A DNA stretch of 64,000 nucleotides, from the NCBI GenBank assembly GCA_035533335.1, contig DATLUC010000031.1, forward strand, positions 45,814-109,813, written 5' to 3'. Within the stretch, counting starts at the first letter, position 1, and the number at the start of each line of letters is the position of its first letter. The notes beneath the pieces are model-generated. The model ran no database searches. It was not told where the DNA came from and was given only the letters and a program-made list of their open reading frames with translations. Position numbers and translations under genes: made by a program. This stretch comes from Candidatus Baltobacterales bacterium. Its GTDB lineage: Bacteria > Chloroflexota > Dormibacteria > Dormibacterales > Dormibacteraceae. Below are positions 13,389 through 47,424 of the stretch, in pieces.

Positions 13389-13925
13389 ATGGCGACGGTC
13401 GAGCGTTACGGCCCCGGTGAGGAGGCCAGCAATTTCTCCGGTGGGGATTTCATCCTGGCCCACCGGCACAACCCGATCGCAGGTCTGATCAGCCAGGCCG
13501 AGAAGAGACGGTTCCACGGCTCCGACGCAGCGTTTGCGCACTGGACCCATGCCGCGGTCGTGGTCGCCACCGATGGATCGCTGGTCGAAGCCGAGACGGC
13601 GGGGGTGAAGCGTAGCCCGATCTCGAGGTATCGAGATGACGAATACCATCTTGTCAGGCTGGGTTCTGGGTTCGATGCCGCCGGCCGTTCGCGGGCGGTG
13701 GCCTACGCGGAGGGACAGGTCGGCCAGGCTTTCGGGTTCCTCGACCTCTTCGGCGCCACCCTGTACCTGCTGTTCGGATGGCCCCTGCGCCTGATGCGGC
13801 GCAACCATCAGATCTGCTCCACGCTGGTCGTGCATGCGCTGCAGCAGGGCGGCCAGGCGGCTGACCTCGACCCACCGTTGACCCTGCCCGCGGATCTCGC
13901 GAAGCTGTACGACGCCCGGCCTTGA
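13389..13925 (+). CDS. Hypothetical protein, possibly a permuted papain-fold (YiiX/DUF830-like) hydrolase
   Basis: 178 aa with a His-containing N-terminal segment (FILAHRH, HWTHAAVV) and a later ICSTLV. The family assignment is from memory of the motif order only. Confidence 0.4.
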   Translation: MATVERYGPGEEASNFSGGDFILAHRHNPIAGLISQAEKRRFHGSDAAFAHWTHAAVVVATDGSLVEAETAGVKRSPISRYRDDEYHLVRLGSGFDAAGRSRAVAYAEGQVGQAFGFLDLFGATLYLLFGWPLRLMRRNHQICSTLVVHALQQGGQAADLDPPLTLPADLAKLYDARP

Positions 13926-13946
13926 CGTGTCTACGATGAGGCTCGG

Positions 13947-14657
13947 ATGGCGAACGTGATCGACCGCAAGCGGCTGCAGCAGATGGTCGCCGCCGGCGCG
14001 CAGCTCGTCGAGGTGCTCCCGGCCAAGGAGTACGCCGAGGACCACCTGCCCGGCGCTGTCAGCCATCCGCTCCGCCAGCTGGAAAAGGAGTCCGCCCAGA
14101 TCGACCGCAACCGCCCCGTCATCGTGTACTGCTGGGATGCTGCTTGAGACCTGGCACCCAGGGCCGCGGCGCGGCTCGAGGCGATGGGATTCCGGGAGAT
14201 CCACGAGTACAGGGCCGGCAAGCTCGACTGGCTTGCGGCAGGCCTGCCGACCGAAGGCGACAACTCTCAACGGCCGCGTGCCGCCACGGCGGCGCGCAAA
14301 GACGTGCCTACCTGCGGACCGGATGAGCGCCTGGGGGACGTTCGCGCGCGATCCGAAGCGGCGCGATGGGCCGCCACTGTCGTGGTGGACGACATCGGCG
14401 TTGTGCTCGGGCTGTTGCGCGCCAAAGAGCTCGCGATGGGAGATGACCTCCGGGTCGCCGAGGCGATGCGGCCGGGGCCGAGCACCTTCCGCCCTTACGT
14501 CCCCATCAAGGAGATGGCGGATTACATGACCCACCACAACCTCGAGAGCGCGCCGGTGACAACCTCCGACGGCAAGCTGGTGGGACTGCTCCTGCGCTCC
14601 GAAGCAATCGACCTCGCCGCCGGCTGCGACGACTGTGCCCGCAAGATGATCAGCTAG
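13947..14657 (+). CDS. Rhodanese domain + CBS-pair protein interrupted by one in-frame TGA (14145-14147); candidate selenoprotein, or else a pseudogene
   Basis: Track ORFs 13947..14147 and 14184..14657 are in the same frame, separated only by one TGA. Read-through gives VIVYCWDAA-[TGA]-DLAPRAAARLEAMGFREIHEYRAGKLDWLAAGLPTEG (rhodanese), followed by two CBS motifs. Confidence 0.6.
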
Positions 14658-21444: not shown

Positions 21445-22125
21445 TTGAGCGAAAGACAGGCTGAAGCGGTTTACAGCATCGGAGCGGTGGCGGCCATGCT
21501 CGGTATGGCGGCCTCCACGCTGCGCGCCTGGGAGGATCGCTATGGGGTGATCACCCCCGCGCGCAGCGAGGGATCGCAGCGCCTGTACTCGCGCGACCAA
21601 GTGGAGCAGCTGCGGTTCATCAAGGCGCAGCTGGAGCAGGGCGCCAGCGCCGCCGACGCGCACCGGCTTTTGGCCCAGGAGCTGGCCGCCGGCCGCATAC
21701 CCCCCGCCGCCGCTGACGCCAACGTCGACGGCCGCCACCTCGTGCTCCTTGCCGACCGCGATCCCTACGCCGCCGACCTGGCCGAATACTTCCTGCGCAC
21801 AGAAGGCTATGAGGTCGTCACCGCGCTCGACGCGACCCAGGCCAAGGTTCAGTTCGGGGAGCGGTCTCCGCAGGTGGTCCTGCTCGACCTGCTCATCTCG
21901 GGTGGCGCCGGCTTCCGGCTGCTCGGCGAGTTCGTGGCGGCCGGCTCGGCGAGGGTGATTGCGGTCTCGGCCATCGACAGCGCCGAAGAGGCGATGCGCT
22001 CCGGGGCGGCGGCGTTCCTGCGCAAGCCCCTCGAGCCGCTGGAGCTCGTGTCGACCGTCCGCGACCTGCTGGGCACCAGCGCCCTTGCCCGCCAATCGCG
22101 GCGAGCGGCGCAACCCGCCACTTGA
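21445..22125 (+). CDS. MerR-family HTH fused to a response-regulator receiver domain
   Basis: N-terminus YSIGAVAAMLGMAASTLRAWEDRYGVITPARSEGSQRLYSRDQVEQLRFIK (MerR HTH). C-terminus LVLLADRDP...VVLLDLLISGGAGF...VIAVSA...FLRKPLEP (REC with Asp, Ser/Thr and Lys positions). TTG start after GGGGAG. Confidence 0.8.
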   Translation: MSERQAEAVYSIGAVAAMLGMAASTLRAWEDRYGVITPARSEGSQRLYSRDQVEQLRFIKAQLEQGASAADAHRLLAQELAAGRIPPAAADANVDGRHLVLLADRDPYAADLAEYFLRTEGYEVVTALDATQAKVQFGERSPQVVLLDLLISGGAGFRLLGEFVAAGSARVIAVSAIDSAEEAMRSGAAAFLRKPLEPLELVSTVRDLLGTSALARQSRRAAQPAT

Positions 22126-23513
22126 ACGACCGCCTCCCGAGCGGCAACGCGCGCCTCGACGAGATCCTCAACGGGGGCCTGCTCAAGAACGCGATCAACC
22201 TCATCGTCGGCGTGCCAGGGAGCGGCAAGACCATCCTCAGCCAGCAGTTCGTCTTCCATAACGCGAGCGCTAAGCAAAGGGCGCTGTACCTCTCGACCCT
22301 GTCGGAGCCGCTCGACAAGATCCTTCGCTACGGGGAATCGCTGAGCTTCTTCGACAAGGCCGCCATCCGCGACGGGCACATCGTCTACGAGGACCTCGGC
22401 CAGGTCCTCGGTGAGCAGGGGCTCGACGACGTGCTGGAGGCGATCGGCGGGTACTTGAAAGAGGTGCGCCCGGCGGTCGTGGTGTTCGACAGCTTCCGGG
22501 CCTTCCACGCGCTGGCCCCTGACGCGATGGCCTTTCGGCGCTTCCTCTACGGGCTCACCCGCCGGCTGACCGCCAGCGCGACCACCTCGATCTGGAACGC
22601 GCCCTATTCGCGGGTGGAAGCTGTCAATGAGGCCGAGTTCGCCGTGGCCGACGCCATCCTCGCTTTGGACATCAAGCAGATCGCGGAGCGTGAGATCCGC
22701 GTCCTCCAGGTGCTCAAGCTGCGGGGCAGCAGCTATCGATCGGGCGAGCACGCATACCGCATCTCGGGACACGGCTTCGACGTCTTTCCACGGCTGGCCG
22801 ACGCGCAGGATCACTCCCGCTACGACCTCAGCGAGACTCGGGTGGCGACAGGGATCAAGGCGCTCGACGACCTGCTGGGCGAGGGCGGCTACTGGGCCGG
22901 CGCCTCAACCCTGATCGCCGGGCCCTCGGGCATCGGCAAGACCCTCATGGGGCTCCATTTCCTGTTCCACGGGGCGGCGCGCGGCGAGCCGGGCATCCTC
23001 GCCGCCTTCCAGGAGAACGAGTCGCAGCTCGCCAGGATCGTGAAAAGCTTCGGCTGGTCGCTCGACAACAAGAATGTCCACGTGCTGAGCCGCAGCGTCG
23101 TCGACATGTACATAGATGAATGGGTCTACGAGCTGCTCGACCTCATCGAAAGCTCGGGGGCCAAACGCATCGTCATCGACAGCCTTCCGGACCTGATCAG
23201 CACCGCCGCCGACCCTGTCCGCTTCCGCGAGTGGATGTTCTCGCTGTCGCAGCGATGCGCCCGCGCCGGCATCAGCCTGATGATGGTCGTCGAGGTGCCC
23301 GACCTCTTCCAGCTGCGCCGTATCTCCGAGCATGGCATCTCACACCTGACCGACAACGTCGTCCTCCTTCAGTACGTGCAGGAGGGGCCTGAGCTCGCTC
23401 GCGCCCTCACCGTGCTCAAGACCCGAGCCATGCGGCACCGGCCCGTGGTCCACCGTTACGACATCACCGACCAGGGGTTCGTCCTGGGAGACGTGCTAAG
23501 CGTTACGCGCTGA
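22122..23513 (+). CDS. KaiC-like double-domain RecA-superfamily ATPase
   Basis: Two tandem KaiC/RecA-like domains with Walker A motifs GVPGSGKT and GPSGIGKT. The TTG start overlaps the upstream stop (TTGA). Confidence 0.9.
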   Translation: MNDRLPSGNARLDEILNGGLLKNAINLIVGVPGSGKTILSQQFVFHNASAKQRALYLSTLSEPLDKILRYGESLSFFDKAAIRDGHIVYEDLGQVLGEQGLDDVLEAIGGYLKEVRPAVVVFDSFRAFHALAPDAMAFRRFLYGLTRRLTASATTSIWNAPYSRVEAVNEAEFAVADAILALDIKQIAEREIRVLQVLKLRGSSYRSGEHAYRISGHGFDVFPRLADAQDHSRYDLSETRVATGIKALDDLLGEGGYWAGASTLIAGPSGIGKTLMGLHFLFHGAARGEPGILAAFQENESQLARIVKSFGWSLDNKNVHVLSRSVVDMYIDEWVYELLDLIESSGAKRIVIDSLPDLISTAADPVRFREWMFSLSQRCARAGISLMMVVEVPDLFQLRRISEHGISHLTDNVVLLQYVQEGPELARALTVLKTRAMRHRPVVHRYDITDQGFVLGDVLSVTR

Positions 23514-23703: not shown

Positions 23704-24906
23704 TTGGGCGAGATGTGGTGGCGGGTGGGGATCGTGCTGATGGCGGCCGCCGTCGGCGTGGCTGCCTGGAGCTATCTCCGTCCCATACCTGCAGTCGCGG
23801 CCGTCGCAGCGCTGCCCGCGACCGACAACGTGCCCGGCAGCTCTCCGCCGCTTCCATGGCCGAGCCGCGGCTCGGCGGCGGTTTCCGTATCCGGCCTGGG
23901 CTTCATCGGCACGTCTGGGAACGAGCAGCCGATTCCGGCGGAGAGCGTCACCAAGGTGATGACCGCGCTGCTCGTGCTCGAGGACAGGCCGTTGAAGCTG
24001 GGGGAAAGCGGGCCCGTGATCACCCTTACGAATACCGACGTCGAGTATTACCTGAGCGACCTCGCGGACCAGGGGTCGGTGGTCCCGGTGCGGAGCGGCG
24101 AGCAGATCTCTGAGCTGCAGGCGCTCCAGGGCCTGCTGCTCCCCTCCGCCAACAACCTCGCCGAGTCACTGGCTCGGTGGGACGTGGGCTCCGTCGCGGC
24201 CTTCGTGACCAAGATGAATGCGCGAGCCAAGGCCCTTGGGCTCATACACACTAATTTCGCCGACACGTCCGGCGCCAACCCTCAGACCGTGAGCACGCCC
24301 ACCGACCTCATGACGCTCGGGATCGCCGCCATGAAGCAGGAGGTGTTCGCGCAGGTGGTCGCGATGAGCCAGACAGAGCTGCCGGTCGCAGGCACCGTCT
24401 ACAACGTGGACGCCGTCCTAGGCCAGGAGGGGATCATCGGCATGAAGACCGGCTCCGGGCTCAGCACGGGCGCCAACTTTCTCTTCGCCGCCCTTCTACC
24501 GGTGGACGGCCATACGATCACGCTGTTCGGCTGCGTGATGGGACAGGCCACCCTATCCACCGCGTTTTCCGCCGCGAAGACGCTGCTGGCGGCCATGCAG
24601 GCCGCGCTTCACGTACGCCGCGTGATCGCGCGGAACCAGACCGTCGCGACTTACCGCACGCCCTGGGGCCCACAGACCGATCTGGTCTCGACTGTGGACG
24701 TCGACCTCGTGGAATGGCCGGCCATGGTCCTGCGGCAGCGCCTGCAGGCGAGATCGATCGTCGTGGACCAGCCGCTGCCGGCCGGCTCGCAGGAGGGGGT
24801 CGAGCATCTGGTCCTCGGCGACTACGTGCTGGACGTGCCCCTGGCTACCGCGGGCCCGCTCTACCCGCCAGGACGCTTCTGGAGGTTGACCCGGATTGGC
24901 GCCTGA
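23704..24906 (+). CDS. D-alanyl-D-alanine carboxypeptidase (serine peptidase S11, PBP5-like)
   Basis: N-terminal TM/signal segment plus SVTK (SxxK), SANN (SxN) and KTGS (KTG) motifs. Confidence 0.85.
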   Translation: MGEMWWRVGIVLMAAAVGVAAWSYLRPIPAVAAVAALPATDNVPGSSPPLPWPSRGSAAVSVSGLGFIGTSGNEQPIPAESVTKVMTALLVLEDRPLKLGESGPVITLTNTDVEYYLSDLADQGSVVPVRSGEQISELQALQGLLLPSANNLAESLARWDVGSVAAFVTKMNARAKALGLIHTNFADTSGANPQTVSTPTDLMTLGIAAMKQEVFAQVVAMSQTELPVAGTVYNVDAVLGQEGIIGMKTGSGLSTGANFLFAALLPVDGHTITLFGCVMGQATLSTAFSAAKTLLAAMQAALHVRRVIARNQTVATYRTPWGPQTDLVSTVDVDLVEWPAMVLRQRLQARSIVVDQPLPAGSQEGVEHLVLGDYVLDVPLATAGPLYPPGRFWRLTRIGA

Positions 24907-24972
24907 GGCGCCGCCTCGAGGGATCGAATGAAGCGCCGCTATGATCGAAAAGTGATCTCGCCTTTACACGAC

Positions 24973-25233
24973 GTGCGCATCGAATATTGCGTCCCTTGAG
25001 ACTACCTTGACCAGGCCGTGAGCCTGGCCGGCGAGCTGCTGAGCCGCTGGGCGCCCATCATGCGGGCGGTCGAGCTGCAGAGTGGGAGCAAGGGCCGTTT
25101 CGAGGTGTCGCTCGACGGCAGCCTGGTGTTCAGCAAGGAGACCGCCGGGCGCTTCCCCAAACCCGGCGAGGTGGCTGCTCTGTTCGAGAAGAAGCTCGGG
25201 CCGGCGCTCGACTGGCGGCAGTCTTCGACCTGA
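24973..25233 (+). CDS. SelW/Rdx-family thioredoxin-fold protein with an in-frame TGA in the CxxU position (candidate selenoprotein)
   Basis: The track shows only 25018..25233. The same frame from GTG 24973 reads MRIEYCVP-[TGA 24997-24999]-DYLDQAVSLAGELLSRWAPIMRAVELQSGSKGRFEVSLDGSLVFSKETAGRFPKPGEV... Total length would be 86 aa. Confidence 0.75.
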
Positions 25234-46383: not shown

Positions 46384-47424
46384 ATGCGGAATCGCATCAT
46401 GCAGGCGGTCCGCCGCGCCCAGAAGACAGTCCCCGTTCGGGTCCTGACGGCGTTCGGCGAAAGCCAGGCAAGCAACTACGCGTCTGCGCTCGCGTTTGCC
46501 GGCTTCCTGGCGATGTTCCCGATGATGCTCGGGGCGCTGTCCATCATCGGCTTGATGATCCGGAACCCCGGGACCGAGGCGCACTTCCAGGCTCTCATCC
46601 TGCAGGTCTTCCCCGGCAACGCCCAGCCTGAGTTGAGGAGCGCCATTCAGGGTGTCAAGCAGTCCGCCGGCTGGATGGGGCTCGTTTCGATCGGCGGCCT
46701 TGTCTGGAGCGCAAGCAGCATCTTCGCGACCATGGAGTTCGCGCTGACTGAAATCTTCGGCACGAAGCAGCGCGACATGGTGCGGCAGAAGCTGATGGGC
46801 TTCGTGATGATGCTGCTGCTGGTCGTCGCAGTCGTCTTCACGGTCGGAGTGAACTCGATCTCCGGGTTCCTACCTTACGCGTGGATCGTCAGCCTCCTGC
46901 TCGGCGCCCTGGTCATGGTCGGCCTGCTGGTCCTGCTCTACCGCTTCGTGCCCAACCGCACCTTCACGCTCCAGGAGGTCCTGCCCGGCGCCGTGCTGGC
47001 GGGCGTCCTCATCGAGGTCCTGTCGCTCGCGTTCCCCCTGTACGCCCGGTACGCCGGCAGCTTCAACACGTACGGCGCGCAGTTCGGGCTCTTCTTCTTG
47101 CTGGCGACCTGGTTCTACCTGCTCAGCGAGCTACTCCTCCTCGGTGCGGTGTACAACCGGTTCAGGATGGGGGAGCCCGTCAAGAGAGGCCTCATCGCAA
47201 GCCCGCTGGGAGACTCCCGCCAGAACAAGAGGCCCGTCGAGGCGATCAAGGAGAACAAGGCCAAGGACGGTCCGACGCCGAAGCAGATATCCGCGACCGA
47301 GGCTTCCTCGCCCGCAAAACGGCGGCGTTCCGCATTTCAACGTCTCGCTCTGAGCTTGGCTGTGGCGGTCGCTGTGGCGGCGGGCATCGTGCGGAGAAGG
47401 GCGCGCCCGAAGACCGCCTCCTGA
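46384..47424 (+). CDS. YihY/BrkB (ribonuclease BN-like) family membrane protein
   Basis: ASNYASALAFAGFLAMFPMMLG and six hydrophobic segments. Confidence 0.85.
   Translation: MRNRIMQAVRRAQKTVPVRVLTAFGESQASNYASALAFAGFLAMFPMMLGALSIIGLMIRNPGTEAHFQALILQVFPGNAQPELRSAIQGVKQSAGWMGLVSIGGLVWSASSIFATMEFALTEIFGTKQRDMVRQKLMGFVMMLLLVVAVVFTVGVNSISGFLPYAWIVSLLLGALVMVGLLVLLYRFVPNRTFTLQEVLPGAVLAGVLIEVLSLAFPLYARYAGSFNTYGAQFGLFFLLATWFYLLSELLLLGAVYNRFRMGEPVKRGLIASPLGDSRQNKRPVEAIKENKAKDGPTPKQISATEASSPAKRRRSAFQRLALSLAVAVAVAAGIVRRRARPKTAS

Follow-up and report, generated by a model that had tools for sequence, protein, structure and literature searches.

Introduction

Can a TGA codon in the middle of a rhodanese domain be read as selenocysteine (Sec), or does it end the protein there? 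The question is raised by a gene in a 64,000-nucleotide stretch of DNA from a Candidatus Baltobacterales bacterium (contig DATLUC010000031.1, positions 45,814 to 109,813; hereafter the window). In this gene, which encodes a rhodanese domain followed by a pair of CBS domains, the frame that opens at ATG 13947 runs to TAG 14655–14657, and TGA 14145–14147 is its sole interruption. Comparison with orthologs indicates that this is very probably a real selenoprotein gene with its own selenocysteine insertion sequence (SECIS) element and that the TGA is a Sec codon. Among the rhodanese-like selenoproteins, a known kind, the gene probably represents a new form.

One Frame across a Conserved TGA

A first-pass annotation of the window had joined two open reading frames (ORFs), 13947–14147 and 14184–14657, and reading the sequence confirms that they are one frame broken only by this TGA. 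Translation across it gives ...NRPVIVYCWDAA*DLAPRAAARLEAMGF..., in which the asterisk marks the TGA. The whole gene (13947–14657; this and all features within it lie on the + strand) has 236 codons, 235 standard ones plus Sec67, and its single frame is conserved across the TGA in 160 loci. The proposed domain order, rhodanese and then a CBS pair, is also upheld. The rhodanese domain (residues 8–97; 13968–14237) scores 48.5 bits against Pfam PF00581 (cut-off 22.2) and has the TGA mid-domain. The CBS pair, or Bateman module, covers residues 113–223 approximately (14283–14615); Pfam PF00571 matches one repeat (residues 170–223, 43.1 bits against a cut-off of 24), and a fold of two repeats is seen in an AlphaFold2 model of a homolog with Cys in place of the TGA and in Foldseek matches. 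In the public annotation the gene is split in two, a Rhodanese protein of 66 aa and a CBS protein of 157 aa.

The ortholog set consists of 80 species-representative genome loci and 80 metagenome loci, the genome loci being mostly labelled Dormibacterota, 'Chloroflexi CF_' or Actinomycetota and 58–87% identical to the window protein. TGA is found at the same column in 157 of the 160 loci and TGC in the remaining three. Species-representative genomes have TGA in 79 cases and TGC in one, and metagenome contigs have TGA in 78 and TGC in two, although the metagenome scan was seeded with Cys-form proteins only. In this set the TGA is shared among orthologs and the column otherwise holds Cys, two points that the first-pass annotation had proposed as checks. 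Moreover, three more assemblies of the same organism from other samples (ERZ27256799, ERZ27256814 and JGI 3300031671) have the same split gene with the same TGA and context. Across 149 distinct TGA genes, the codon just before the TGA is GCT or GCC only.

The same pattern appears in protein databases. The downstream ORF is matched at 100% identity by a record on a 148-kb contig labelled 'CBS domain-containing protein, Candidatus Baltobacterales', and dozens of homologs of 167–175 aa start with MAPRAAARLE..., two codons past the TGA column; a minority of homologs (223–243 aa) has Cys at this column. Among 150 representatives of clusters at 50% identity, which are 38–68% identical to the window protein, 88 have their start exactly two codons past the Sec column, and another 20 are full-length proteins in which Cys occupies this column. 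At the DNA level, Cys-form genes with TGC or TGT at the Sec column are found in loci L076, L093, L114 and L175–L178.

Homologs with W, R or S in this column were considered as a sign of a dispensable residue, and this was rejected because the DNA reads TGA, AGA and TCA. AGA and TCA are each one base from TGA, Cys is the sole recurring sense codon, and TGG occurs in no locus. In L166 (801–1475; protein P0040, and probably also P0028, P0031 and P0038) the JGI protein shows Trp where the DNA has TGA, apparently translated as W. The AGA gene (L164, P0006) and the TCA gene (L165, P0098) both have an intact copy of the hairpin described below, and the two codons are rare ones for high-G+C genomes; the C-terminus of P0098 is divergent in a frameshift-like manner. 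Judged by their sequences, the two genes may have escaped recently from Sec dependence or be decaying, or their codons may be read errors in contigs of low coverage. The gene model of P0035 (209 aa, 'Chloroflexi bacterium') omits a stretch of about 27 residues at the Sec column (...EHP|IFHYHAGKLDW...). Its likely locus, L020, carries a normal TGA gene, and the model apparently works around the stop.

Position of the TGA in the Rhodanese Fold

The first-pass annotation had put the TGA at the persulfide-forming cysteine of the rhodanese loop, and this did not hold. When the protein is aligned with E. coli GlpE by BLASTP, it is Cys62 (VYC; TGC codon 14130–14132) that falls on the catalytic Cys65, with a two-residue insertion in the loop, and this canonical persulfide-forming position is Cys in all 152 TGA-form genes compared. 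The U-X4-R stretch, which had been taken as the C-X4-R loop, lies partly within the following helix in the AlphaFold2 model of the Cys homolog. In this model (62% identity to the window protein; predicted local distance difference test score, pLDDT, 94.1), the central strand, with Cys62 at its end, covers residues 59–62, the loop 63–69 (CWDSECD) and the next helix 70–80. On the model, residue 67 is placed five residues past Cys62, where the active-site loop, which has two residues more than that of GlpE, ends before the next helix, and the predicted motif is Cys-X4-Sec (C62-W-D-A-A-U67-D). The TGA is located between strand 59–62 and helix 70–80, mid-fold; therefore, a protein that stopped after 66 aa would comprise only half of the domain.

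The nearest solved rhodanese fold found by Foldseek is BH2092 of Bacillus halodurans (PDB 3nhv), with a root-mean-square deviation (rmsd) of 1.7 Å over about 107 columns and 25% identity. A motif of the kind that the first-pass annotation had given for related proteins, YCWxxxCxxxxxAA, turns up in this protein; its loop has the same pattern as that of the window protein, I-T-Y-C-W-G-P-A-C-N...AAA, that is, Cys-X4-Cys. BH2092 has Cys at the Sec position and lacks the CBS pair, and it is a structural-genomics entry without an assigned function. E. coli GlpE, PspE and YgaP share the rhodanese fold, with the catalytic Cys ending the central strand, but they have a six-residue loop, C-X4-[S/T/R], and one cysteine, whereas the window protein has two additional loop residues and a second chalcogen residue and continues into a Bateman module. 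For the C-terminal half, Foldseek matches are the nucleotide-binding CBS pairs of AcuB, MgtE (cytosolic domain) and IMPDH (Bateman module), with E of about 4e-9 and rmsd of 2.2–2.9 Å. No solved structure has a rhodanese and a CBS pair together.

A Constrained Hairpin behind the TGA

The pairing between GGGCCG (14161–14166) and CGGCUC (14172–14177) is present in the window, and RNAfold adds a C-G pair to it, giving a 7-bp stem (14161–14167/14171–14177, one G-U pair) with a 3-nt loop, GGC (14168–14170), and a free energy of −12.1 kcal/mol. This hairpin (14161–14177) begins 13 nt past the TGA. Across 77 sequences, bases 19–24 and 27–33, counted from the T of TGA, are invariant, and for the stem the proportion of paired cells is 92%, compared with 26–48% when the partner is slid.

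The first-pass annotation had suggested looking for covariation of the hairpin across orthologs. In this form the check gives no information, as the stem is constant in the 77 sequences, and it was replaced by an entropy test at synonymous sites, which did demonstrate conservation. For all 88 conserved fourfold-degenerate codons in the 149 distinct TGA genes, third-position entropy was calculated. The hairpin codons A73, A74, R76 and L77 have 0.06, 0, 0 and 0.14 bits, while the other 84 range from 0.93 to 1.93 bits. The probability that the four codons of lowest entropy among the 88 would be neighbors by chance is about 4e-5. At the third position of Arg72, G and A alone are seen, both of which can pair with the opposite U.

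As a control, seven genes of the Cys form with the same R-A-A-x-R-L peptide were read. Their codons for A73, A74, R76 and L77 differ in 4/7, 3/7, 2/7 and 1/7 of the genes, respectively, one of the four differences at A73 being an Ala-to-Gly replacement and not synonymous. The synonymous constraint is relaxed in Cys forms, and therefore it is tied to the TGA. The hairpin pointed out in the first-pass annotation is thus real and under selection at the RNA level. One Cys form, L114, retains an intact hairpin; at the sequence level, this agrees with a recent replacement of Sec by Cys.

The shape of the hairpin agrees with the bacterial SECIS (bSECIS) model, which calls for a loop of 3–9 nt with G in its first two positions and a stem of 4–16 bp, 16–37 nt from the UGA, with a minimum free energy of −7.5 kcal/mol or lower (consensus model of Zhang and Gladyshev, cited in PMC13188914). 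Its stem of 7–8 bp, loop C-G-[G/U]-N-G (GGC or CGGCG in the window), distance of 19–20 nt from UGA to loop and energy of −12.1 kcal/mol all fall within the four constraints. The SECIS of the E. coli fdhF type is likewise a stem-loop within the coding region shortly after the UGA, but its sequence is unrelated to that of the window hairpin.

Signs of Sec Decoding in These Lineages

A second selenoprotein gene is predicted in the window itself. It is SelW-like (Rdx family; 24928–25233, +) and has TGA 24997–24999 in the context IEYCVPUDYL (CxxU); it scores 68 bits against PF10262 with U replaced by C. A hairpin at 25011–25027, with 6 bp (CCAGGC-CGUGA-GCCUGG) and −9.5 kcal/mol, begins 11 nt past this TGA. 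The SelW-like TGA was picked up by a separate motif scan and not by a composition scan of the window for in-frame TGA codons with coding-like flanks, which returned the rhodanese-CBS site and three others.

Searches for the Sec machinery gave a single gene. ARAGORN detected no tRNA-Sec in the window or in 88 loci, and Pfam found no sel genes among about 30 window ORFs and the public gene calls. In a tblastn search of the window and the locus DNA with E. coli SelA, SelB and SelD, the one match was selD in L042, a metagenome-assembled genome of Actinomycetota. This gene (432–1487, −) is 1.5 kb from the rhodanese-CBS ortholog, its product shares 42.6% identity with E. coli SelD, and it carries an in-frame TGA at the column of E. 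coli Cys17 (SHGAG*ACK). The SelW-like CxxU gene in the window and the Sec-type selD beside this ortholog argue for Sec decoding in these lineages.

A database search with the L042 SelD protein returned only Actinomycetota-labelled or unlabelled matches, and neither selA nor selB was found in the 20-kb contexts of these. The same selD gene is also present in L169 (10001–10975) and L170 (8192–9166); public calls shorten it to 324 aa. In four loci (L169 10001–13581, L172 10001–13401, L173 10001–13524 and L174 6767–10290), selD is followed by a conserved cluster of genes for JAB (Mec-like), ThiS (CysO-like), PALP (CysM-like) and Asp/Glu racemase proteins. By its gene content, this cluster is a predicted operon of the sulfur-carrier cysteine-synthesis type.

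Alternative Explanations

Several observations weigh against a Sec-encoding TGA with its own SECIS. The folding energy of the hairpin is unexceptional, with z = −1.28 against dinucleotide shuffles of the 48-nt stretch (67% G+C). Compensatory changes in the stem are absent among the 77 sequences, and the support it has is conservation, not covariation. Rfam gave nothing relevant, either for the whole window at the gathering threshold or for the surroundings of the site at E up to 10. No selA, selB, selD or tRNA-Sec gene lies in the 64-kb window or in the Dormibacterota flanks examined. Selenium incorporation into the rhodanese-CBS protein is a prediction from sequence, and the role of Cys62 and Sec67 as a redox or relay pair, for which the evidence is their position in the rhodanese fold, might equally well prove right or wrong. 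The hairpin signal is beyond chance because it is comparative, consisting of the TGA column and the near-invariant synonymous sites, and does not depend on folding energy.

Among the three options that the first-pass annotation had left side by side, Sec is strongly supported, and the other two, a nonsense mutation and a sequencing error, are rejected by the TGA in 157 of 160 loci and in the three further assemblies. A pseudogene that arose when a Cys codon (TGC or TGT) mutated to TGA would agree with the single base that separates TGA from TGC and with the few homologs that have Cys at the column. It would not explain why the TGA recurs across Dormibacterota- and Actinomycetota-labelled genomes, why amino-acid conservation is intact on both sides without frameshifts, or why Cys forms are the rare state, some of them keeping a remnant of the hairpin (L114); a single clonal contaminant is excluded by the identities of 58–87%. 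This explanation is extremely unlikely. An error of sequencing or assembly has nothing to recommend it but the prior that single-base errors happen, and its probability is negligible given the identical TGA in ERZ27256799, ERZ27256814, JGI 3300031671 and about 150 other genomes and metagenomes. The same low standing is given to a reassigned genetic code with TGA as a sense codon, for which nothing in the window speaks. The code is taken as standard because TGA ends many ordinary Pfam-complete genes of the window (e.g., 13389–13925, 22122–23513, 23704–24906 and 46384–47424), and the composition scan, as noted, brought up only the rhodanese-CBS site and three others, the SelW-like site having come from the motif scan.

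Two other explanations were weighed. The TGA might be a true stop, so that a rhodanese fragment of 66 aa is made and the CBS protein is initiated on its own, the hairpin serving translational coupling, re-initiation or mRNA stability. Many orthologs indeed have an ATG two codons past the TGA (D-M-[A/S]-P-R), where gene callers start, and a hairpin could in principle pause ribosomes. However, this start is not conserved, being CTG in the window and CTC, ATC, ATA, ACA, GTG, GTC, CTT, ATT or TTG elsewhere. A stop would sever the rhodanese fold after its central strand, ahead of the next helix, Cys-form homologs with the same loop are single chains, and the constraint on the hairpin relaxes when TGA becomes TGC, so that it follows the TGA and not a downstream start. 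Two separate polypeptides are therefore very unlikely. Also very unlikely is decoding of the UGA by a suppressor or near-cognate tRNA for Trp, Cys or Arg, with the hairpin stimulating read-through. The failure to find Sec machinery in the window or the locus flanks would be expected under it, and some public records do translate the codon as W, but these are artefacts of applying a translation table to TGA. As a sense codon only Cys recurs, AGA and TCA occurring once each (the TCA gene being frameshift-like) and TGG not at all; the hairpin fits every bSECIS constraint, and a SelW-like CxxU gene in the window and a Sec-type selD beside an ortholog also speak for Sec over a suppressor tRNA.

Relation to Known Rhodanese-Like Selenoproteins

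A 2026 review lists five forms of rhodanese-like selenoproteins, namely UxxS, UxxG, CxU (LYCAU, NF041203), a further UxxG, and UxxxxU (TsoB, NF045694), with WP_010941598.1, MBM9537886.1 and MCY3690685.1 as representatives of forms 1, 2 and 4 (PMC13188914). All five also have a PF00581 rhodanese domain with Sec in or beside the active-site loop. LYCAU retains the canonical Cys and has Sec downstream of it, as in the window protein, but with a spacing of X1 and not X4. TsoB has two Sec residues with X4 between them, the same spacing as Cys62/Sec67, whereas the window protein has one Sec, and it has a DsbD-like part where the window protein has a CBS pair. With 24.1 bits for NF041203 (cut-off 115) and 24.3 bits for NF045694 (cut-off 805), the window protein scores far below both models, and no NCBIfam selenoprotein model reaches its cut-off.

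Neither the C-X4-U motif nor a CBS fusion is listed among these forms (PMC13188914). Forms 1, 2 and 4 were compared with the window protein by motif notation: UxxG (forms 2 and 4) does not fit U-D-[L/M]-[A/S], but UxxS fits U-D-[L/M]-S in part of the rhodanese-CBS family, and identity with form 1 is possible. As a rule of the field, a different Sec site makes a different subfamily (PMC9312934), and it is because of its different Sec site that the rhodanese-CBS gene is counted as a probable new form. The literature search found no match for a rhodanese with CBS and selenocysteine and no paper linking Dormibacterota with selenocysteine.

Gene Neighborhood and Further Features

A Shine-Dalgarno-like GAGG (13938–13941) is predicted 5 nt 5′ of the ATG. 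Besides Cys62, two further cysteine sites may be noted. Cys123 (DVPTC; codon 14313–14315) is Cys in 120 of the 152 TGA-form orthologs, and the C-terminal CxxC, C227-D-D-C230 (14625–14636), is found in 21 of them, all in the AAARL/AASRL (Dormibacterota-type) clade.

No neighbor is common to all loci; genes for an MFS transporter, merB, a glycosyltransferase, a methyltransferase and 6PGD are each found near the gene in some of them. An MFS transporter gene precedes it in 28 Dormibacterota-type loci, and in L179 the stop and start codons of the two overlap. In the window, the ORF directly upstream (13389–13925, +; 178 aa) has a sub-threshold match to Peptidase_C92 (23.3 bits against 27), and this ORF is missing between the MFS and rhodanese genes in L179.

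In one Actinomycetota-type subclade within the AAWRL clade, and only there, merB immediately precedes the gene, in the same orientation, in 11 loci (L129, L132, L133, L137, L141, L143, L148, L154, L163, L061 and L164), and it is nearby downstream in two (L067 and L165). In the first nine of the upstream loci, merB ends at about 1464–1488 and the rhodanese-CBS gene starts at about 1501. The encoded alkylmercury lyase (PF03243, 63.5 bits) has the WCAYD and EWC cysteines.

Proposed Mechanism

By analogy with established bacterial Sec insertion, the hairpin at 14161–14177, which is inside the coding sequence, would act as a bacterial SECIS that recruits SelB with Sec-tRNA(Sec), and the UGA would be decoded as Sec. 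In the finished protein, the favored role is that of a Cys/Sec pair formed by Cys62 and Sec67. Sec67 could attack or accept sulfane sulfur (or another chalcogen or a soft metal) held on Cys62, possibly as the acceptor or the resolving nucleophile for the Cys62 persulfide; alternatively, a Cys62-Sec67 selenenylsulfide could be the redox-active state. The CBS pair might confer regulation by adenine nucleotides through nucleotide sensing, or it might serve dimerization. Because the gene sits right behind merB in one clade, Sec67 may accept Hg(II), or another soft electrophile, upon its release at Cys62 or MerB, and for any particular substrate the assignment is improbable.

The several strands may be combined into one tentative picture, which as a whole is rather doubtful. 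The family would be a sixth, uncatalogued form of rhodanese selenoprotein, Cys-X4-Sec joined to a Bateman module, in which Sec is ancestral and near-universal and Cys forms are rare and recent. It would be widespread in soil Dormibacterota and Actinomycetota and mis-annotated as two genes, Dormibacterota would decode Sec, and Sec67 would perhaps be an Hg(II) acceptor.

Significance

If the TGA is a Sec codon, a systematic annotation error would be corrected, as hundreds of public records present this protein as a 66-aa 'rhodanese' and a 'CBS domain protein' of about 167 aa, some with Trp for the TGA. The protein would also add to the rhodanese selenoproteins one that retains the canonical Cys and has Sec at a second position in the loop. 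Among the forms in the review, only CxU (LYCAU) is noted as keeping Cys beside Sec, the others being given by motif alone (PMC13188914). The family would thus provide a natural system for studying the role of a selenol beside a persulfide-forming cysteine. In selenoprotein families, Cys forms usually outnumber Sec forms, and here the reverse is seen. This would be a large selenoprotein family of soil bacteria that gene callers routinely split and that was not found in the current catalogues searched. It would be the first indication found for Sec decoding in Dormibacterota, and it would point to selenium dependence in abundant, uncultured soil phyla.

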